Shown in pieces: positions 2,610 to 51,671 of a stretch of 52,208 bases of DNA; positions within the stretch are counted from its first letter, which is position 1, and every line of letters begins with the position of its first letter. The DNA is from a virus: IMG/VR virus record IMGVR_UViG_3300030330_006035, positions 1 to 52,208 of that record; one strand, written 5' to 3'. The translations under genes were made by a program, and so were the position numbers. The notes beneath the pieces were generated by a model. The model was given only the letters and a program-made list of their open reading frames with translations. It did not search any database and was not told the origin of the DNA.

Positions 2610-3083
2610 ATGACACATCTCAAAATGCAATCGCTTCGATCTTCTCGTTCAACCAGTGGTGGACTGCCACCCTATGTGATGACCAATGAGGAAAAGGCTT
2701 CATTCAAAGACCAGATCCAATACGGAACTGACTCAGATGGTAACTGGTTCATGGTGTTGCCTCCGATCCCATTGCGTCCCGGTAACCGTGGTGAGACTGG
2801 TAAGTCAGCCGGTCTGTGTTCCATCAATCAGTGGGACTCGGAGAAGAAGCAACAACGTGACATCATCATTGCCGATGGTGACAGCATCACTGGTGTTGAG
2901 TCGATGATCGTCATGTCACTCAATGTGGCAGCAGTGGCGAAGAACGGGAAGACCTTCCCGAACTTCAATGAACTGCGACAACCAGCGCAGTCTGAACCAG
3001 ATGCAACCAGCAACGCCACCCTTGGTGGAGGAGTTGCTGATGTATCGGATGCAGACCGCAAAGCAATGGGTATCACTGACTGA
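2610..3083 (+). CDS. Hypothetical protein (157 aa) with an acidic C-terminal tail. An ssDNA-binding role is only a guess.
   Basis: ATG at 2610 lies 7 nt after AAGAAAGGTAGG. The upstream part of ORF 2475-3083 crosses a GC hairpin (about 2531-2570). Confidence 0.55.
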   Translation: MTHLKMQSLRSSRSTSGGLPPYVMTNEEKASFKDQIQYGTDSDGNWFMVLPPIPLRPGNRGETGKSAGLCSINQWDSEKKQQRDIIIADGDSITGVESMIVMSLNVAAVAKNGKTFPNFNELRQPAQSEPDATSNATLGGGVADVSDADRKAMGITD

Positions 3084-3188
3084 TACCCATCAGATGATCT
3101 CGTCTTTGAGCCCTGCCGGTATGATACGGCGTAACGTGACACCAGGTGAAAGTCACGAGGGACCAGGCGAGACGTCTGTCTACCCCCC

Positions 3189-3228
3189 TGACTCCCCTCC
3201 ACTCCGGTGGAGGGTGAGTCTTTTTTTT
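3189..3228 (+). terminator. Rho-independent terminator.
   Basis: GACTC-CCCTCCAC / TCCG loop / GTGGAGGG-TGAGTC followed by T8. Confidence 0.85.
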
Positions 3229-3243
3229 ACGGAGTGAAACACC

Positions 3244-18569: not shown

Positions 18570-18976
18570 CGCTGTCTCCTTGGCGTGAGAGCCCAAAGAG
18601 GCAAGAACCATAGAGGGGTCGCTTCTGGCACCGCAGCGGCTTGTGGCTCAAGGAAGAGGCTCATATCAGGAGCAGAGTAACTCGGCAGATACGAGCCAGC
18701 CACGTGCCAAGTCTCTGGATTTAGTTGTGGGGTGTAAGGCTCATACTCAGCAACGTCAGGAACGTCAGGAACGTCAGCCACGGTAGTCACCTTCTCCACC
18801 GTGTCGAAGACAGCCATGGCTTTGTCAAGAGTCTCTTTGGCTACAAGTGTGCTGACCACCGTCAATGCGATAGTCAAGCGTTGTGACTGTTTGTCGAGAC
18901 GCTTTCGTTCCGTCTCGCAGTTAGCCCTCGCCTGGTTCTCTGCCTTTTCTCGTGCTGCACACTTCTCACATGTCAC
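18566..18976 (-). CDS. Hypothetical membrane-associated protein with an uncertain start (GTG 18976; the ORF extends to 19021).
   Basis: Hydrophobic segment LTIALTVVSTLVA and a DVPDVPDV repeat encoded by a 3 x 9-bp tandem repeat at 18752-18778. Confidence 0.4.
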   Translation of the reverse strand: MTCEKCAAREKAENQARANCETERKRLDKQSQRLTIALTVVSTLVAKETLDKAMAVFDTVEKVTTVADVPDVPDVAEYEPYTPQLNPETWHVAGSYLPSYSAPDMSLFLEPQAAAVPEATPLWFLPLWALTPRRQR

Positions 18977-20015
18977 AGTCGCCCCACTCAGACAGCACCT
19001 TGACAATGGCGTTGAAGCCATTGTTTGTCTGGGGGTGATACTTATATGAAGACACGTCCCCCAGGACTTGCAGTAAATCTTGGAACCCCACTATGCCGTC
19101 CTCGTTCAGGTCTGACGGGCAAGAGTTGTCCGCTTGGTAGTTGACTTGGTATGGCGACGGCTCACAGGGGTGGTCGTTGCCGCAAGCAAACCGCACAACA
19201 CCAGAAGACGCGAAGGAATCGGGACCAGTGAACCTAGCGATGTGAAACGAACCAGGCCACTTCTCGCTACCCCAGTCTACGTCAGCGTTCCATCGGATCA
19301 GATCACCGTAGTCATTCTGAGATGGAGCAGAGCAGCACCTCTCGGATGGAATCACACCCACAGGGAAGGGCTCCCAGTACTTGATAACCCTGTTTAGTGT
19401 TGGGTGGGGGGTAATAAGATCCTTGTGCTGCTGCTGCACCAGCGGGTACTTGTATTGCTGCGAGTTGCCGTACTTCTTGCCGAGTGGTCCATGCAGAATC
19501 CATGAGTCACACCATGCATAGTCAAGGTCAACTATGTCAGCCGTCCGTGGGCAGCATCCTTGTGGTCCCTCAAAGATCCAGTTGATCGGGGTGAAGTTCA
19601 TACCCAAATACATCCACCGCTGGTACGGGTTGGCTTGGATGCAGTCCCAATACTCGCCTGCCTCTGGACAAAGAATCCCGGTATCTATCTCCCAGTATTC
19701 GATGCACTCTTGGCAGTTCTCCAGCCAAGGGTATAGGTGGTCAGGTCTGTGGTTCTTGAAGATATCACCCACGATTGCCCACTGAAACGCTCTAGCCGGT
19801 GACTCGTTGCCCCGGGTACAGCCAATCATGTACGGACGTCGCGGGTCGCCATTAGGGTATGAGAAGTCTGGGTCAAAACCGGTTTGGATATAGACATCAA
19901 ACGTCCGACCGAAAGGGGTCAGACGTCCGAGATCATCAATCCACATGGCTACTGCGTCGGGGTCAGCTGGTGGCCCCCCCACTAGCAGCGATAGTAATAG
20001 GGTTAGCATTTCCAT
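18966..20015 (-). CDS. Secreted Cys- and Trp-rich protein with a dockerin-like C-terminal module (349 aa).
   Basis: Signal-like N-terminus MEMLTLLLSLLVGGPP. About 14 Cys and about 14 Trp by my count. C-terminus CPSDLNEDGIVGFQDLLQVLGDV...WGDC resembles a dockerin / EF-hand-like repeat. Confidence 0.65.
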   Translation of the reverse strand: MEMLTLLLSLLVGGPPADPDAVAMWIDDLGRLTPFGRTFDVYIQTGFDPDFSYPNGDPRRPYMIGCTRGNESPARAFQWAIVGDIFKNHRPDHLYPWLENCQECIEYWEIDTGILCPEAGEYWDCIQANPYQRWMYLGMNFTPINWIFEGPQGCCPRTADIVDLDYAWCDSWILHGPLGKKYGNSQQYKYPLVQQQHKDLITPHPTLNRVIKYWEPFPVGVIPSERCCSAPSQNDYGDLIRWNADVDWGSEKWPGSFHIARFTGPDSFASSGVVRFACGNDHPCEPSPYQVNYQADNSCPSDLNEDGIVGFQDLLQVLGDVSSYKYHPQTNNGFNAIVKVLSEWGDCDM

Positions 20016-20275
20016 CTCCGTCGTGCAGCGCAGATACGCTTCTTTGGGGTCTTAGAGCAGTTCACTCCGTGCATCTTCATCTGCCCCTTAGAGCGAGCGC
20101 AGTACGAGGTTCGTCGTTTGCCTCCGCCTGGCTGGGGAGCTTTGAGCTTGCTGCCAGTTGCACGGTTGTACTTGGCTCGGCCTTTGGCAGTAAGACCTGC
20201 ACCCTGAGATGCAGGCTTCTTCTCGCCGCGACCGACTGAGAGTGATACGTTTTTGCGCTTCTTCTTCTTGGCCAT
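20003..20275 (-). CDS. Small basic protein (90 aa).
   Basis: MAKKKKRKNVSL...GLTAKGRAKYNRATGSKLKAPQPGGGKRRTSYCARSKG...ICAARRRWKC. TAATG coupling with the upstream ORF. Confidence 0.6.
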   Translation of the reverse strand: MAKKKKRKNVSLSVGRGEKKPASQGAGLTAKGRAKYNRATGSKLKAPQPGGGKRRTSYCARSKGQMKMHGVNCSKTPKKRICAARRRWKC

Positions 20276-20511
20276 TACTTCTTCTTCCTGGTTTTCTTCT
20301 TCCAAGAGATACGAGCAGGACCTGTCTTCCGTTTGGCAGCGGAGTTGCACTGAGCCTTAGTAGGACGACAAGCAGGATAAGGACGATTCTTATCCTTCTT
20401 GCCGCTCCTTCCGCAAGGCTTGCCGGTCTTGCAGTCGATCCAGCCTTTGCCTTTGTTCTGACTGAACCACTTGCGTAGACCACCGGACGTAGCGGACTTC
20501 TTCTTAGCCAC
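20275..20511 (-). CDS. Small basic Cys-containing protein (78 aa).
   Basis: ...GGLRKWFSQNKGKGWIDCKTGKPCGRSGKKDKNRPYPACRPTKAQC... GTG start overlapping the upstream stop. Confidence 0.6.
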   Translation of the reverse strand: MAKKKSATSGGLRKWFSQNKGKGWIDCKTGKPCGRSGKKDKNRPYPACRPTKAQCNSAAKRKTGPARISWKKKTRKKK

Positions 20512-20668
20512 GCTTCATGATCTTGTCTTGCAAGAATTTAGGCAGTGTCTTCTGCTTTGCCGTCAGCCTCTTGCCGTTCTTGGCTGCGGGCTTCTTGGCT
20601 CCGGCCTTGGCTTTCTTGATGCCCTTCTTTAGGCCGTTCTTTGCTTTACCGTTTGGTCGCATTGCCAT
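20504..20668 (-). CDS. Tiny basic protein (54 aa).
   Basis: Hand-translated base by base: MAMRPNGKAKNGLKKGIKKAKAGAKKPAAKNGKRLTAKQKTLPKFLQDKIMKRG. TAATG coupling upstream. Confidence 0.55.
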   Translation of the reverse strand: MAMRPNGKAKNGLKKGIKKAKAGAKKPAAKNGKRLTAKQKTLPKFLQDKIMKRG

Positions 20669-20823
20669 TACTTTTTCCTTTTGCTTTTGTTGCCATAGTT
20701 AGCAGCGCCTTTCTTACGGCACTGCACGATTCGACCAGATGCATACGCCGAAGGGAACACCTTGGCGGTTGCCTTTACCTTGTGGTAGCAGGCATCTTTC
20801 TTACCTTTTTTCTTAGCGGGCAC
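20668..20823 (-). CDS. Tiny basic protein (51 aa).
   Basis: Hand-translated: (GTG)PAKKKGKKDACYHKVKATAKVFPSAYASGRIVQCRKKGAANYGNKSKRKK. AAGAAAGGA lies 8 nt upstream of the GTG. Confidence 0.55.
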   Translation of the reverse strand: MPAKKKGKKDACYHKVKATAKVFPSAYASGRIVQCRKKGAANYGNKSKRKK

Positions 20824-20911
20824 GTCGTCGTCCTTTCTTCGCAGGTTTCTTTTTGGGGACGGCAGTTTTTTTCATCTTACCGCATCCGCAATCATGTCCT
20901 TTTTTGTGCAT
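20813..20911 (-). CDS. Tiny basic peptide (32 aa).
   Basis: Hand-translated: MHKKGHDCGCGKMKKTAVPKKKPAKKGRRRAR. No clear RBS, and the start could be the second ATG. Confidence 0.35.
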   Translation of the reverse strand: MHKKGHDCGCGKMKKTAVPKKKPAKKGRRRAR

Positions 20912-20926: not shown

Positions 20927-23900
20927 TCAGAAGCCTTGGAATCTCTCGAACACCTCGGGCTGCAGGAGCTCACGCTGCCTCTCTGTCTCTTGAATGGACC
21001 GTTTGATCTCTTGGAGAACTTCTGGAGACAAAGAGACGGGTACTTGAGTGGGGGTAACTGCCTGCCTCTGTGAGGTGGTGGGCATATTCAACAACACTTC
21101 CTGTGGAGTCTGCACCCGTTCTGGTCTTGATGCTGCTTCTTGCTGGAAGTAAGACCGGATCTCGGGAGGCATACGGTCCATCATGCGTAGGGAGCGCGGA
21201 GTCTCCATGCCCTTTACCGCAGCCTTGATCTGCTGGGTGGTGACAGGCAAACGGAACCCATACTTGCGTTGGAACTCTGCGTTGATCCTCTCTCCCTCAG
21301 CCACATCCCCCTTCCGCACGACAGCGTCGATCCATCTACGCCGTTGCTGGTTGATCTGATCTCTCTGGCGCACCATGTAGCCGTCGATGTCACGGCTGTA
21401 CTGAGGCAGAGAAAGGTTTGCACCTAGACCTCTGAGAATTAGAGATGACGGGCTTTGGTAGTCGACCAGTGTGCCGTCGGACTTCTTGATGGGAATCAAA
21501 CCATCAGGGGTCATGTTCTCGTAGTCCCCGTAGAACTTCTGAGCGGGGGATGCAATGCTCGTAAGGAAGTTGCTCTTGGCATCAGGGGCTACCTGCAGTG
21601 CACGCTGGAGTGCAATACCACCAGGAACGGATCTTGCCATGGCGTCACCGATTAGCTGGACATCTCCCCTCATCACACCCTCAAAGGCAGATGCAGAAAT
21701 GCCTATGACTGGAGGCACCACAAATGGGAACTCACCTCGGGCTAGTTTCTCAGGGTTGGCAAATGCTTTGTAAGACTCAATCGCTCCACCTCGAGACAGG
21801 TCTGCACCGATGAGTCCCTTTGCCCCTTCGTAAATCAGAGCACTTACACCGATCATGCGGAGCGGGTCAGCCAGTCGGAAGGGAACTTCTAGGTCGGTGC
21901 CTCGAATGAACCGTTGTCCTCCTTGAACCATGCCTCCACCGATAAACGATGAGGTCAAAGTACGCAGACCAAACGACTGGAACTGTCGAAGCAAGGGGTC
22001 AGACAGGGGTCCACGCATGAACATCATAGGAGTACCCAAGATGTCAGCACCAAACTGGAACTGCTGCACGGCCTTGGTTGCGTCGTACTTAAACGCTTCT
22101 TCTGTCACAGAGTTACCAAACACCGTCTTGCCATCTGGTCCCTTGTTGGCCAGCCCACGAGCCAGATAGTTGTGCTTCATGGCATGCACCGTAGTCAGAC
22201 GGTTCATCCATTCAGTCTTTTCAAATCCTTTGAGGCTGAAGTCCACAACCTTGTTGACGTCGAAGTTGGCACCCCGTGCGATGCGCTGTGCGTCCATCAG
22301 TCGGTCGATATCAGAGATAACGTCGCCCATAATCCCTGCTTCTTCAGGGAACTCAAGGACCTCTTCCAGAATCTCGCGTCGTTGCTCTGGAGTAATTCTT
22401 ACGCCGAAGTCCATACGACGTCGTGCGTACCGGGTAAGGTCGTCTGCTGCGTTTGCCATCCCCTTGACGGTGGCTTCCATACCCACAATCGTTTGCAGGT
22501 GCAAAAAGGGCTGCTGAAGGTTCAGCAAAATAGAACCAAAGTTCATACCGAGGTGGGATGCATACAGGTAACTGGCTGCGTTGTTCCGCACAGGGTCGAT
22601 CAGCTCTGCTGCGTCTCGGCTAGCAAAGTACTTGATCTGCTTCATCGCCTCCTTCATGGTGGGGCTGGCGTCAGATAGTTTTTGAGCAAGAATACTGTTG
22701 GCGAACTTCTCCCCCACTGCCTGTGCTTGGCGTGTAGCGAACGTCACAAGGCTGGCTTGGTCAGTACGCATACCCAGTGCGGCAGGAATGATTGTCTCTC
22801 GGAACAACTCGTAGGCTTTCTCGCCCCGCAGCTTGGACAGTTCTGGTGCTACCTGCGCAGTGTCGGAGGCTACGGTACGCAGCTGGTTACCTACCTGCTC
22901 AAGAAGGTCAGCACGTGTCCATCCCCCTGGGGGTGCAACACTGTCTTCAAACACTTGCATCAGACGAGGTGCTTCTGCGCCTTTCTTGTACGCTCGTGCT
23001 CGCACTTGCGTCACGCTTTCGCCAAACCTCTCTGCTCCCTCAGGGGTAAGCAGGGACTCTCTTTGTGCAAGCCGCTCAAGGTCGGTGATCTCGTCGATGT
23101 AGAGGGCGTGGTCTCTTGCTGTCTGCAGATGGTAGGTTTCGTAGCTTCGGTTGAAGTCGATGCGCCGCATGGGCACAATACGCCCCTCTGCTTTGTTAGC
23201 ATCTGCGTACCTAATCACCCTTTGACTTAGATCCTGGTGGTATTTGTACCCGCCTGCTGTTTGACCCCCCACTGCCTCTGCTGCCCGACGAGCTCGGTCT
23301 AGGTCTTCGGGCAGGTACGCGACCTCGTTGATGTTTCTACGTGCAGACCGGCCAGATGCAAACATCTGGGACATCTCGTTACGGATGTCTCGTCCGCCTT
23401 TTACGTCAAAGGTAGGGCGGTCAAGACCGGTAGCCTCCACAAACTTAAATGGTTCGTTGGGCCCCCGCTTGAACGTGTAGAAGTCCATCTGATTACGTGG
23501 AAAGTACGAGCCGCCAGCAAACAGGTCGTTGGCCATACCTCTGGTCATCAGGTCTACAAACTCATCGTCCCCAATATTCAGTGGCTTACCGGACATCAGG
23601 TTTGCCCGCATCTCTCTACTCATCAAACGATCAAAGAATCCAGGCAGCTGGACTGATTCGTCGATGTGCGGGCTCTGCAGTGCGTTCTTCAGCCGAATGA
23701 CTTTGTTGGGGTCAATCAGTTCTTTGGCTGCTTCTAGTCGTTTGGCTCCATCAGCCATGCCTTCCACTGCACGGACCTGGTCTAGGCTAACTCCCTCTTT
23801 TAGATAGTTCCTAGACATGCGTAGACGGAAGCTGTCACGGTGCGCCTCTGCCAGGTCGTACAGTCCACGTTGTTTGAGTACGTTGTCCAGTCCACCTGCA

Positions 23901-24709
23901 GCACTGAAGTCAAAGATCTTGGACGATTTGGTCGTTTCGTCAATCGGGATGATGTCGTCAACCCCTGTCTTGACTCGGAAGATAGCACCATCAGCATCTT
24001 CTACCAGCTCTCCACCCTTCTTCTGGTAGATCTTGTGCAGTTCTTTGGCCTTCTCTAGGGCCACCTCTTCTCCATCTACGGTCGTAAACTTCTGGATGTA
24101 GTTGGTTCGAGTGATGTTCTCGACCTTGTCCATGCCTGCCAGTTTGATGTGCATGAGGTCAAGGTCTGTCTCGATCTCCTGCCGTAGTTTGATGTCTTTG
24201 ATCTTGCCTGGGTTGCGGTACTGGTGAATGCTGATCCCCCGGGTCTCCAAGTAAGAGGCCAAGGAAGGATCAACAATCGCTCGAGTTTCATCCGACAGGT
24301 TGCGGATGACTCTCTGCATGTTGGTTACCGCTTCACCTCCTGCGGTGCCCATCAGCATCTCGTTGCCGTTACGTGCAAACAGAGCACTCAAGCTGTTCTT
24401 GACGTGCTGTCCAAACACACGGCCATTCGCCCGCAGCCCTGCTGGGGTGAACATAAATGCTAGGTAGACAAGAGGGTTTGTGGCTACATCGACCAGCGCA
24501 GATCCTACGCCTTTGTCTTCATAGCCCAAGTCCTTCTTCATCCTGTCTGCGTATGAGTCCCGTTGGATGGGGCTCAGGTGGTCAGGACTAAAGAAGGTAT
24601 CTACGACGCTCCCGAAGGTCGCTTCGTCATCCAAGATCTGGGTGAGAGCGACCTCCGGGGCATCATAGAAATGTAGCGGGCCGAATGGGCTCGCTTGAAT
24701 CTGGCTCAT
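20927..24709 (-). CDS. Giant virion-module protein (1260 aa), a candidate internal/ejection or tail-associated protein.
   Basis: Uninterrupted 3.8-kb ORF in the late arm. It has hydrophobic segments such as NPLVYLAFMFTPAG. I could not read a catalytic motif. Confidence 0.7.
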   Translation of the reverse strand: MSQIQASPFGPLHFYDAPEVALTQILDDEATFGSVVDTFFSPDHLSPIQRDSYADRMKKDLGYEDKGVGSALVDVATNPLVYLAFMFTPAGLRANGRVFGQHVKNSLSALFARNGNEMLMGTAGGEAVTNMQRVIRNLSDETRAIVDPSLASYLETRGISIHQYRNPGKIKDIKLRQEIETDLDLMHIKLAGMDKVENITRTNYIQKFTTVDGEEVALEKAKELHKIYQKKGGELVEDADGAIFRVKTGVDDIIPIDETTKSSKIFDFSAAGGLDNVLKQRGLYDLAEAHRDSFRLRMSRNYLKEGVSLDQVRAVEGMADGAKRLEAAKELIDPNKVIRLKNALQSPHIDESVQLPGFFDRLMSREMRANLMSGKPLNIGDDEFVDLMTRGMANDLFAGGSYFPRNQMDFYTFKRGPNEPFKFVEATGLDRPTFDVKGGRDIRNEMSQMFASGRSARRNINEVAYLPEDLDRARRAAEAVGGQTAGGYKYHQDLSQRVIRYADANKAEGRIVPMRRIDFNRSYETYHLQTARDHALYIDEITDLERLAQRESLLTPEGAERFGESVTQVRARAYKKGAEAPRLMQVFEDSVAPPGGWTRADLLEQVGNQLRTVASDTAQVAPELSKLRGEKAYELFRETIIPAALGMRTDQASLVTFATRQAQAVGEKFANSILAQKLSDASPTMKEAMKQIKYFASRDAAELIDPVRNNAASYLYASHLGMNFGSILLNLQQPFLHLQTIVGMEATVKGMANAADDLTRYARRRMDFGVRITPEQRREILEEVLEFPEEAGIMGDVISDIDRLMDAQRIARGANFDVNKVVDFSLKGFEKTEWMNRLTTVHAMKHNYLARGLANKGPDGKTVFGNSVTEEAFKYDATKAVQQFQFGADILGTPMMFMRGPLSDPLLRQFQSFGLRTLTSSFIGGGMVQGGQRFIRGTDLEVPFRLADPLRMIGVSALIYEGAKGLIGADLSRGGAIESYKAFANPEKLARGEFPFVVPPVIGISASAFEGVMRGDVQLIGDAMARSVPGGIALQRALQVAPDAKSNFLTSIASPAQKFYGDYENMTPDGLIPIKKSDGTLVDYQSPSSLILRGLGANLSLPQYSRDIDGYMVRQRDQINQQRRRWIDAVVRKGDVAEGERINAEFQRKYGFRLPVTTQQIKAAVKGMETPRSLRMMDRMPPEIRSYFQQEAASRPERVQTPQEVLLNMPTTSQRQAVTPTQVPVSLSPEVLQEIKRSIQETERQRELLQPEVFERFQGF

Positions 24710-50261: not shown

Positions 50262-51671
50262 ATGATCGGAACACAGTCTAACCCAGTACAGAGCGGTGAG
50301 CCTGCAAAGGTAGCCGGGGCACTCTTACAGTCGCACTTCTTGACCCCAAACAACAGGCCGGGATTATGGACCCACCAAGGGGTGCACTACGTTTGGGAGG
50401 GTCACCGCTGGGTGCTGCACGATAGGGAGTGGTTGCGGGATGCCTGCTGGAATATGTTGGAGGACTTCCATATCAACAAGATGGTCAACGGCATGCCAGC
50501 GGTAGTCCGGTATGGGGTGGATCAGTCCAAGATCGCAAATGTGCTGGAGGCTCTGTCTGCCAAGACCCGGTTGCCTCACGTCAATGTTCCGTGTTGGCTG
50601 GGGTCTTCGGACATGGACGCCGCCCGGTGCATCACCTTCGAGGACGCTGTGGTAGAGGTCTCCAATGTCTCCAAAGTCACTGAACGGGACGAGTCTTGGT
50701 TCAGCCCCTCGGTCATCCCTTGCAAGTACGACCCTGAGGCTACGTGTTCTCTGTGGCTCAGCTGCCTTGAGCAGTGGAGCGGTGGAGACAAAGTGTGGAT
50801 TGAGCTGCTACAGCGGTGGTTCGGGTACTGCATGATGCCCCATAATGACTACGCACGGTGGTTTTTGATGTACGGCAAGGTGCGGTCGGGTAAAGGTACT
50901 ATCGCCAAGATCCTCGAAACGCTGCTGGGTCTGGACTCGTACTTCGGTGTCAGCCTCTACAGCCTCAGTAATCGGTTTGGGTTGGATGGGTTGCAGGCTG
51001 CACGGGTCATGTGCGTGCACGAGGTCAGTGAGTTGGATGGCCGTGAGGGTGAGCGGTGTACGCAGGTGCTCAAGAGTATTCTGGGTCAAGACCGTATCGA
51101 CATTGACCGCAAGGGTTTGTCCATGATCCGTAACGTGGTAATCCCTGCTAAGGCCATGATGCAGACTAACGAGATCCCTAAGTTGCCTAACAAAGGTCAG
51201 GGTCTTAGTAGCAAGATGCTGCTTCTGCCGTTTGACGTGTCATTCCACGGTAAGGAGGACGAGCGGTTGATCCACAAGTTGCGGGAGGAGTTGCCCGGTA
51301 TTGCAGCATGGGCGGTGCAGGGGGCACTGAAGTGTGAGAATGCGCAGACTAGCGCAGAAAGATTCCCGGTACCTGAGCGGAGTGCAGACGCGGTGCGACT
51401 GTACCTACAGACCAACAACCCGTTCGATAGCTTCCTTGAAGCCCGATTCGTACAGAATGACAATGGCTTCGTAGCAACAGAGATGATCTGGAAGCAGTGG
51501 GAAGACTGGGTCGAGAGAAACAAGGTACGAGGCATGCACATTAGCCGCAACCAAATCACCGTAAAGATAGAGCAGGAGAGCAGTTGGAACCTGCGGCGTT
51601 ACCGCCCGTGCGGCGGCAAACGTGGTTTGAAGGGCATGGTGCTCAGAACCAAGTATGATGACGAGGCATGA
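50262..51671 (+). CDS. SF3 helicase of the D5 / P4-alpha type (D5_N-like region plus NTPase). No recognisable primase domain.
   Basis: WIELLQRWFGYCMM (D5_N-like), Walker A MYGKVRSGKGT, Walker B-like VMCVHEVSE and motif C-like MMQTNEIP. Confidence 0.65.
   Translation: MIGTQSNPVQSGEPAKVAGALLQSHFLTPNNRPGLWTHQGVHYVWEGHRWVLHDREWLRDACWNMLEDFHINKMVNGMPAVVRYGVDQSKIANVLEALSAKTRLPHVNVPCWLGSSDMDAARCITFEDAVVEVSNVSKVTERDESWFSPSVIPCKYDPEATCSLWLSCLEQWSGGDKVWIELLQRWFGYCMMPHNDYARWFLMYGKVRSGKGTIAKILETLLGLDSYFGVSLYSLSNRFGLDGLQAARVMCVHEVSELDGREGERCTQVLKSILGQDRIDIDRKGLSMIRNVVIPAKAMMQTNEIPKLPNKGQGLSSKMLLLPFDVSFHGKEDERLIHKLREELPGIAAWAVQGALKCENAQTSAERFPVPERSADAVRLYLQTNNPFDSFLEARFVQNDNGFVATEMIWKQWEDWVERNKVRGMHISRNQITVKIEQESSWNLRRYRPCGGKRGLKGMVLRTKYDDEA

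Follow-up and report, generated by a model that had tools for sequence, protein, structure and literature searches.

The window analysed here covers positions 1 to 52,208 of the IMG/VR virus record IMGVR_UViG_3300030330_006035 (52,208 nucleotides, nt), and the subject of this work is an array of five very small genes, p1 to p5, at positions 20003-20911. The original prediction, made from the sequence alone, had described five back-to-back open reading frames (ORFs) of 32, 51, 54, 78 and 90 amino acids (aa), joined by TAATG and GTG..TAA overlaps and all strongly enriched in Lys and Arg, without giving a strand. The ORF coordinates bear out the sizes and the junctions and place all five consecutively on the minus strand, between a 1260-aa ORF (24709..20927) and a 349-aa ORF (20015..18966). 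In the order in which they are read, they are p1 (20911..20813, 32 aa, ATG start, isoelectric point (pI) 11.2), p2 (20823..20668, 51 aa, GTG start, pI 10.5), p3 (20668..20504, 54 aa, ATG start, pI 11.8, without Cys), p4 (20511..20275, 78 aa, GTG start, pI 11.1) and p5 (20275..20003, 90 aa, ATG start, pI 11.7). The start of p1 lies 15 nt past the 3' end of the 1260-aa gene, GTG...TAA overlaps join p1 to p2 (11 nt) and p3 to p4 (8 nt), TAATG junctions with a 1-nt overlap occur at p2/p3 and p4/p5, and the last 13 nt of p5 are also the first 13 nt of the 349-aa gene; two reading frames alternate along the array. The basicity was also found as described (Lys plus Arg 32-44%, pI 10.5-11.8, one or two acidic residues per protein), and the three motif strings quoted in the prediction occur verbatim in p2, p4 and p5. 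The sense strand of the array is purine-rich (A 34%, T 14.5%). On the minus strand, no promoter- or terminator-like site was found within the array and no terminator-like site between the 1260-aa gene and the array, and no Rfam family reached its threshold in the array region, which also has no tRNAs. The array is part of a long minus-strand gene block that also contains the large terminase subunit gene.

The ratio of non-synonymous to synonymous substitution rates (dN/dS) was calculated by the Nei-Gojobori method between the window and L101, a 51-kb Tara Oceans scaffold that was found, like locus L015, because it carries copies of p4 and p2 that are exact or nearly so; the 1260-aa gene was measured against L005, one of the IMG/VR loci (L004 to L007) found via the 1260-aa protein. 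The dN/dS was 0.06 for p1 (12 synonymous and 5 non-synonymous changes), 0.02 for p2 at a dS of 0.92, 0.09 for p3 (6 synonymous and 2 non-synonymous changes), 0.03 for p4 and 0.06 for p5. The flanking large genes gave 0.06 (349-aa gene) and 0.04 (1260-aa gene). Since the values of 0.02-0.09 across p1 to p5 lie in the range of the flanking large genes, all five are coding and under strong purifying selection. In-frame homologues of array genes were found in L101, L005, L004 and L015, and in L019 the amino acid identity of p4 is 94% while synonymous sites are saturated. All five frames proposed as genes in the original prediction are thus kept in relatives, and we regard it as nearly certain that p1 to p5 are real genes of the families described below, namely DUF6321, a split DUF5872 and lineage-restricted cassettes.

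The clearest family assignment was obtained for p5. Residues 25-88 of p5 align to profile positions 5-72 of 72 of the Pfam family DUF6321 (PF19846) with 54.3 bits (cut-off 28.5, E 2e-14), and p5 also matches phrog_10346, labelled 'unknown function' (E 4e-25). Homologues fall into 5486 clusters at 90% identity and occur in 191 GenBank phage records, including T4-like and T7-like cyanophages, pelagiphages, Microcystis phage Ma-LMM01 and a Methylophilales phage. The core residues G-L-T-x-x-G-R, S-x-C-A-R and R-x-W-x-C are common to the family in an alignment of 76 sequences, and the core motifs are also present in P-SCSP1d, S-TIP37, Venkman and CRP-7. The domain spans approximately residues 25-90, with conserved Cys59 and Cys90, behind a Lys-rich N-terminal tail. 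An AlphaFold2 model of p5 (mean predicted local distance difference test score (pLDDT) 81.6) contains helices at residues 30-40, 53-69 and 80-87; a Foldseek search of BFVD with this model returned DUF6321 proteins only, and the p5 sequence had no match in the PDB. By sequence, then, p5 is a DUF6321 domain, and nothing distinguishes it from the other members of DUF6321/PHROG 10346, with their 72-position domain and SxCAR...RxWxC core.

The second family is divided between p2 and p4. The core of p2 (DACY...PSAYASG...CRK) has invariant Cys12 and Cys35, with Lys-rich tails on both sides, and p2 matches phrog_727, phrog_38880 and phrog_3477, all of 'unknown function' (E 6e-21 to 1e-15). Its homologues form 897 clusters at 90% identity, and its DNA is 79-82% identical to genes of T4-like cyanophages. 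The most conserved member of the array is p4, with the core L..WF...GW.DCKTGKPCGR...YPACRPT...C and homologues in 683 clusters at 90% identity and in more than 588 IMG/VR stretches; its alignment has 15 invariant columns, including C27 and C48, and the conservation of C33 and C55 is 90% or higher. When scanned singly, p2 aligned to positions 6-44 of Pfam DUF5872 (PF19197) with 16.7 bits, under the cut-off of 27.5, and p4 had no Pfam or PHROG match, so that neither protein of the window exceeds 27.5 bits by itself. The concatenated p2 and p4 sequences scored 31.6 bits over positions 6-88, and the two products cover the profile jointly and collinearly. The same was seen in cultured phages: in Prochlorococcus phage P-SCSP2, the p4-type protein P-SCSP2_00022 alone matched DUF5872 positions 55-112 (53.3 bits) and the concatenated p2-type and p4-type proteins matched positions 6-112 (65.9 bits), and the corresponding concatenation from CRP-7 scored 37.6 bits. 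On the basis of these profile matches, a single DUF5872 domain is divided between two genes, its N-terminal half being encoded by p2 and its C-terminal half by p4. This is the arrangement in most marine phage loci examined, and in the window the halves are further separated by the unrelated 54-aa gene p3.

The alignments of p2, p4 and p5 have 14-15 invariant columns each, Cys, Trp, Tyr, Pro and Gly among them, and Lys-rich tails flank the cores of all three. Inspection by eye of distant homologues indicated one Cys pair per module (C12/C35 in p2, C33/C48 in p4 and C59/C90 in p5), and two further Cys are present in both p4 and p5 of the window's clade. A profile search against the PDB gave p4 a marginal match to a C2H2 zinc-finger chain (E 0.047), a weak hint of possible metal binding; apart from this, p2, p4 and p5 had no sequence match in the PDB. 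We also considered and rejected a cold-shock domain for p4, whose KWF..KGKGWI stretch is like the RNP1 region. The similarity covers about 20 residues and is sub-threshold (residues 10-30, 11.7 bits against PF00313 with a cut-off of 27, and 11.9 bits against CspE with a cut-off of 120), and the KGxGW motif is absent from the distant p4 homologues of P-SCSP2 and CRP-7.

The two remaining genes, p1 and p3, are lineage-restricted lysine-rich cassettes. The p1 protein has a conserved C-G-C motif, had no family match in Pfam, NCBIfam or PHROG scans, and is restricted to close relatives, in which its slot is always the first after the large protein (32 aa in L101, 30 aa in L015, 29 aa in L005 and 35 aa in L004). 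In L005 (9885-10403) and L004 (from ~9920), a strongly acidic 172-aa ORF without a Pfam match stands directly after p1. The p3 protein, located between the two DUF5872 halves, is K/A-rich and ends in a LTAKQKTLPKFLQDKI motif; its conserved C-terminus, LTAxQKTLPxFLQxKI, is shared with a 42-aa gene of L019, and a partial homologue of 57 aa is present in L005. The N-terminal half contains a K/A-rich repeat, and p3 has two short coding tandem repeats that are the only ones in the array. Homologues of p3 are rare (three representative clusters only among 1.84 billion proteins), and tblastn against GenBank phages found none. A separate 36-aa GGKKYPYTKAG protein is encoded at L015:243-353, and in P0361 its motif is joined to the C-terminus of p3.

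To describe how these genes are linked, we counted neighbours in 80 IMG/VR loci recovered through p4. A p2 homologue was found upstream of p4 on the same strand in 72 of the 80, directly abutting p4 in 57 and at a distance of 74-958 nt in 15 more, a gap that leaves room for inserted genes as in the window. A p5 homologue was located within 2.5 kb of p4 in 45 of the 80 loci, upstream in 33 (p5-p2-p4) and downstream in 12 (p2-p4-p5, as in the window), and p4 was typically part of a run of three to six small basic ORFs in succession. The content of the slot between p2 and p4 varied: it is p3 in the window, a 60-aa gene plus p3 in L101, 86-aa and 57-aa genes in L005, 36-aa and 95-aa genes in L015, and 41-aa and 50-aa genes in P-SCSP2. 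The DNA of the window and of L101 is 92% identical from p3 downstream, and across p1, p2 and the 1260-aa gene the identity is about 70% for DNA and 60% for protein; this step therefore marks a recombination junction exactly at the p2/p3 boundary (window ~20668-20680; L101:2656-2849), where the extra 60-aa gene of L101 is located. In addition, copies of p5 with 86-89% identity are present in an unrelated ~59-kb phage, and therefore the genes move horizontally. Among 185,579 species genomes, p4 had only nine matches, all on small contigs of metagenome-assembled genomes with unrelated taxonomic labels, a pattern in keeping with phage DNA that was mis-binned. These results collectively demonstrate that p2 and p4, with or without p5, form a module that is widespread among marine phage genomes and moves horizontally. 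The original prediction had pointed to similar motifs in small proteins of marine phages and giant viruses; the former was confirmed in many marine phages, and the latter holds by way of DUF5872, a family with the giant-virus member CpV-BQ1 (BQ1_105). No array lies downstream of the large-protein gene in the distant relatives L006 and L007, where that protein is 29% identical.

Several other small genes accompany such arrays. A 76-aa mini-HNH-like protein (Pfam HNH, 21.8 bits) and a 110-aa RRLYTDENPKDTV protein are recurrent array cassettes; the coordinates for these and for the GGKKYPYTKAG protein are L020:926-1156, L001:1871-2134, L019:2743-3075 and L015:243-353. A family of small basic proteins of 50-58 aa, with the consensus GLYANIHAKRKRIxAGSGEKMRKPGxKGAPT and no Pfam match, is encoded directly after the DUF6321 gene in T7-like cyanophages and also near the DUF6321 gene in S-CRES3 (family copies at L117:2034-2186, L118:2041-2196, L003:2737-2913 and L001:2312-2467). 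Some array genes are missing from existing annotations: gene calling on the Tara Oceans scaffold passed over p1 and p4 (L101:2413-2511 and 3006-3242), a 77-aa p4 homologue is unannotated in roseophage CRP-902 (L100:3001-3234), and the match in CRP-901 coincides with no annotated feature.

In cultured phages, the homologues were found in the following contexts. P-SCSP2 has five small genes between the scaffold and major capsid protein genes, and in P-SCSP1d the small basic genes lie between capsid and tail tube A. In S-TIP37 and KBS-P-1A they follow portal, scaffold and hli and precede psbA; CRP-7 has gp65-gp64-gp63 immediately upstream of the large terminase subunit gene; and in Venkman they stand upstream of endonuclease, terminase and portal. 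The T4-like cyanophages carry a fused gene between the small and large terminase subunit genes. Thus, the p2-p4 pair is associated with head-assembly and packaging genes. By itself, p5 is more promiscuous in its context than the p2-p4 pair and was found alone in Ma-LMM01 and in the ~59-kb phage. Venkman gp69 (L119:1325-1465), a 46-aa lysine-rich peptide that adjoins the DUF6321 gene, is annotated as 'Gp59-like DNA recombinase', which looks like a spurious annotation of a low-complexity basic peptide.

The fused gene of the T4-like cyanophages encodes a single protein that contains both the p2 and the p5 module. S-MbCM6_093 (421 aa) contains a p2 module (E 4e-27), DUF6321 (E 3e-18) and a weak p4-like LHDWF...GW...GKPC stretch, and SSCSM1_29 of S-SCSM1 (517 aa) contains p2 (E 3e-30) and p5 (E 1e-22) modules; Pfam DUF6321 was found in both, and the fused protein had no match in the PDB. 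The gene for SSCSM1_29 lies between those for the two terminase subunits, small and large, and its product carries the annotation 'virion protein', a label that in the S-SCSM1 genome denotes detection by mass spectrometry in CsCl-purified particles (PMC9602691); this is the one experimental indication that links the modules to virions. We examined prohead-protease release of free modules from the fused proteins and rejected it, as only two to three (L/I)xE motifs are present and none lies in a linker. Residues ~380-440 of SSCSM1_29 share, by eye, a VMVTWRGKGYSLKMF...YPGG segment with the adjacent small gene SSCSM1_30 (L116:2216-2536), and this shared segment is another module that occurs both free and fused. 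In a 2010 paper on cyanomyovirus proteomics, Table S8 gave no entry that could be tied to the gene in question, and the papers on P-SCSP1u cryo-electron microscopy and on MPP-C make no mention of the small proteins.

From these observations we propose that the array would be co-transcribed late with its neighbours and translated in a coupled way, the coupling being suggested by the overlaps. The p2 and p4 proteins would associate to rebuild a DUF5872 unit, in which the conserved Cys pair retained by each half could contribute to a common Cys4 metal site or form disulfides. The p5 protein would fold into a small three-helix domain, and the Lys-rich N- and C-terminal tails would bind nucleic acid independently of sequence. 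The proteins would bind the phage genome and be packaged with the DNA in the capsid as small internal proteins, where they would neutralise or organise it, and they might enter the host with it. That the array products are late-made, packaged, DNA-associated proteins is a reading to which we give slightly less than an even chance. A broader version, in which small Cys-containing basic proteins (a split DUF5872 heterodimer, DUF6321 and extras) are co-packaged as capsid-internal chromatin and delivered to the host with the DNA in many marine tailed phages, and perhaps giant viruses, is more doubtful. The original prediction had suggested a protamine- or histone-like role in DNA condensation or packaging. 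A link to the capsid or to packaging is plausible, given the arrays near scaffold, capsid and terminase genes and the label of SSCSM1_29; the protamine- or histone-like part did not hold, as p2, p4 and p5 have invariant Cys, aromatic and Gly/Pro positions and no histone, HU or protamine Pfam match. Scans of Pfam, NCBIfam and PHROG at E values up to 1 returned no histone-fold, HU/IHF or protamine family. We conclude that p2, p4 and p5 are folded, strongly constrained domains and are not protamine- or histone-like, and the array is not one of five equivalent proteins, since a single Pfam domain is split between p2 and p4.

A number of points weigh against packaging with the DNA or against the domain assignments on which this proposal is built. 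The concatenated p2 and p4 of CRP-902 gave no match to DUF5872, the AlphaFold2 model of p4 is poor (pLDDT 59.7) and too weak for use, and a Foldseek search of the PDB with the p5 model found no fold match. The residue-specific conservation in p2, p4 and p5 exceeds what charge neutralisation needs. The p5 homologues of the ~59-kb phage are part of a replication module, after a primase (Prim-Pol) and a resolvase-like gene, and the p5 homologue of Ma-LMM01 stands among helicase genes. The mass-spectrometry evidence from S-SCSM1 concerns a 517-aa multi-module myovirus protein and not free small proteins, and the authors of that work pointed out that abundant non-structural proteins can contaminate virion preparations (PMC9602691). 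Furthermore, the structural role of the window's own genes around the array is at best putative, and only the large terminase subunit was recognised.

Some of the same evidence would favour intracellular nucleic-acid-binding factors that act on DNA or RNA of the phage or the host, for instance in recombination, replication, transcription or translation, and are never packaged, with adjacency to head genes reflecting late timing only. The replication-gene neighbours of p5 in the ~59-kb phages and in Ma-LMM01 agree with this, as does the recombination endonuclease beside p5 in Venkman, and the residue-specific constraint on p2, p4 and p5 suggests a specific partner. However, head or packaging modules are where the p2-p4 pair and most arrays of cultured phages are located, the annotation of the fused homologue marks it as virion-detected, and there is no match to a known DNA- or RNA-binding domain, the cold-shock similarity being sub-threshold; we consider such unpackaged factors possible though rather unlikely. 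Simple polycations that act by charge only and lack a defined fold, comparable to sperm protamines or adenovirus mu, would account for the Lys plus Arg content and pI, for the Lys-rich tails at both ends of p2, p4 and p5 and for the largely low-complexity p1 and p3. This is improbable, because p2, p4 and p5 each have their 14-15 invariant non-basic or structural columns, their dN/dS is 0.02-0.06 even where dS nears saturation, p5 has a confidently modelled helical domain, and no protamine or histone family was matched.

Two further explanations concern the genes themselves. The five ORFs could be parts of a single larger gene whose reading frame is interrupted by sequencing error, pseudogenisation or programmed frameshifting; the fusion of modules in T4-like cyanophages, the alternation of the ORFs between two frames and the division of one Pfam domain between p2 and p4 would all be expected in that case. 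Nevertheless, the split layout, in which each module has its own start and a 'MAKKK' N-terminus, was found again in over 80 independent contigs as well as in the isolates P-SCSP2, CRP-7 and CRP-902, the TAATG-type junctions are conserved, and whole genes are gained or lost between the modules with their neighbours undisturbed, which makes a broken gene very improbable. A non-coding A/G-rich spacer or RNA element with chance short ORFs would be in keeping with the purine-rich sense strand and with three very short ORFs, but it is refuted by a dN/dS far below 1 in all five genes and by thousands of protein homologues, and no Rfam family reached threshold.

Phage T4 offers a functional analogy: its internal proteins IPI, IPII and IPIII are small basic proteins that are packaged with the DNA in the head and injected with it. 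The array may, by analogy, work like them. They have no sequence similarity to the array proteins, no N-terminal capsid-targeting sequence or prohead-protease (L/I)xE site was found in p1 to p5, whose N-termini are Lys-rich, and no gene of the window could be recognised as encoding a prohead protease. Protamines, adenovirus VII and mu, and ascovirus P64, a basic DNA-condensing protein of a large eukaryotic dsDNA virus (PMC6163548), resemble the array proteins in extreme basicity and in the proposed condensation of encapsidated DNA; they are mostly of low complexity or have other folds, whereas p2, p4 and p5 are conserved domains with Cys pairs. SSCSM1_29 and S-MbCM6_093 share with the array the p2 and DUF6321 modules and a p4-like LHxWF...GW motif and are encoded between terminase genes, but each is one continuous polypeptide that also contains acidic linkers and additional modules (CWxGY...PNCV and others), in contrast to the free micro-proteins of the window. 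The closest counterparts in cultured marine podoviruses are P-SCSP2 genes 00019-00023 and CRP-7 gp65-gp63, tight arrays of the same families; in P-SCSP2 the order p2-x-x-p4-p5 is that of the window, with variable small genes between p2 and p4. These arrays are annotated as hypothetical proteins, their p4 type has two Cys instead of four, and they have no p1 or p3.

The two large neighbours of the array gave few matches. The 1260-aa protein (20927..24709, minus strand, upstream) had no match in Pfam, PHROG, PADLOC or GenBank phages, and the label 'virion protein' given to it in the original prediction is a putative one; its relatives are in L005 (98% identity), L004 (76%) and L006 and L007 (29%). 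The acidic 349-aa protein (18966..20015, minus strand, downstream; pI 4.5) contains 14 Cys. Its N-terminus is hydrophobic, and its C-terminal part includes a DLNEDGIVGFQDLLQVLGD stretch, which we take to resemble a dockerin or EF-hand Ca-binding loop. The protein had no Pfam, PHROG or PADLOC match, is 95% identical in L101 and is absent from L005, where other genes stand in its place.

When ten large minus-strand ORFs of the window were compared with PHROGs, only the large terminase subunit was matched. A Pfam search of ten further ORFs identified DNA polymerase A, a D5-like primase-helicase, a PD-(D/E)XK nuclease, AAA_24 and a metallophosphatase, and the other five, two of them on the minus strand, had no match. 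DNA polymerase A, the PD-(D/E)XK nuclease and AAA_24 are among the replication genes of the plus strand, and the D5-like primase-helicase is found at 50262-51671. No PADLOC defence model was matched, no tRNA was found in the window, and the phage had no nucleotide match among GenBank phages; it is a very novel marine phage.

DUF6321 and the DUF5872 halves are very common in marine phage data and already catalogued, and they have neither a structure nor a literature; our searches found no publication on the function of either family, on the motifs or on the label 'T4-GC_110'. What is new here is the linked p2-p4-p5 module, the routine split of DUF5872 into two genes, and the fusion of p2 and p5 in a cyanomyovirus protein annotated as virion-associated. 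Small basic genes of such arrays are often left unannotated, as in the Tara Oceans scaffold and CRP-902, and a class of capsid-internal chromatin, if it exists, would have been missed so far because gene callers and tryptic proteomics overlook such proteins. A vague observation of small basic ORFs has become a testable hypothesis, for which the cultured isolates P-SCSP2, S-TIP37, CRP-7 and S-SCSM1 exist. If the array proteins are indeed packaged with the DNA, they would have to be taken into account in models of how marine phages pack and eject their genomes.

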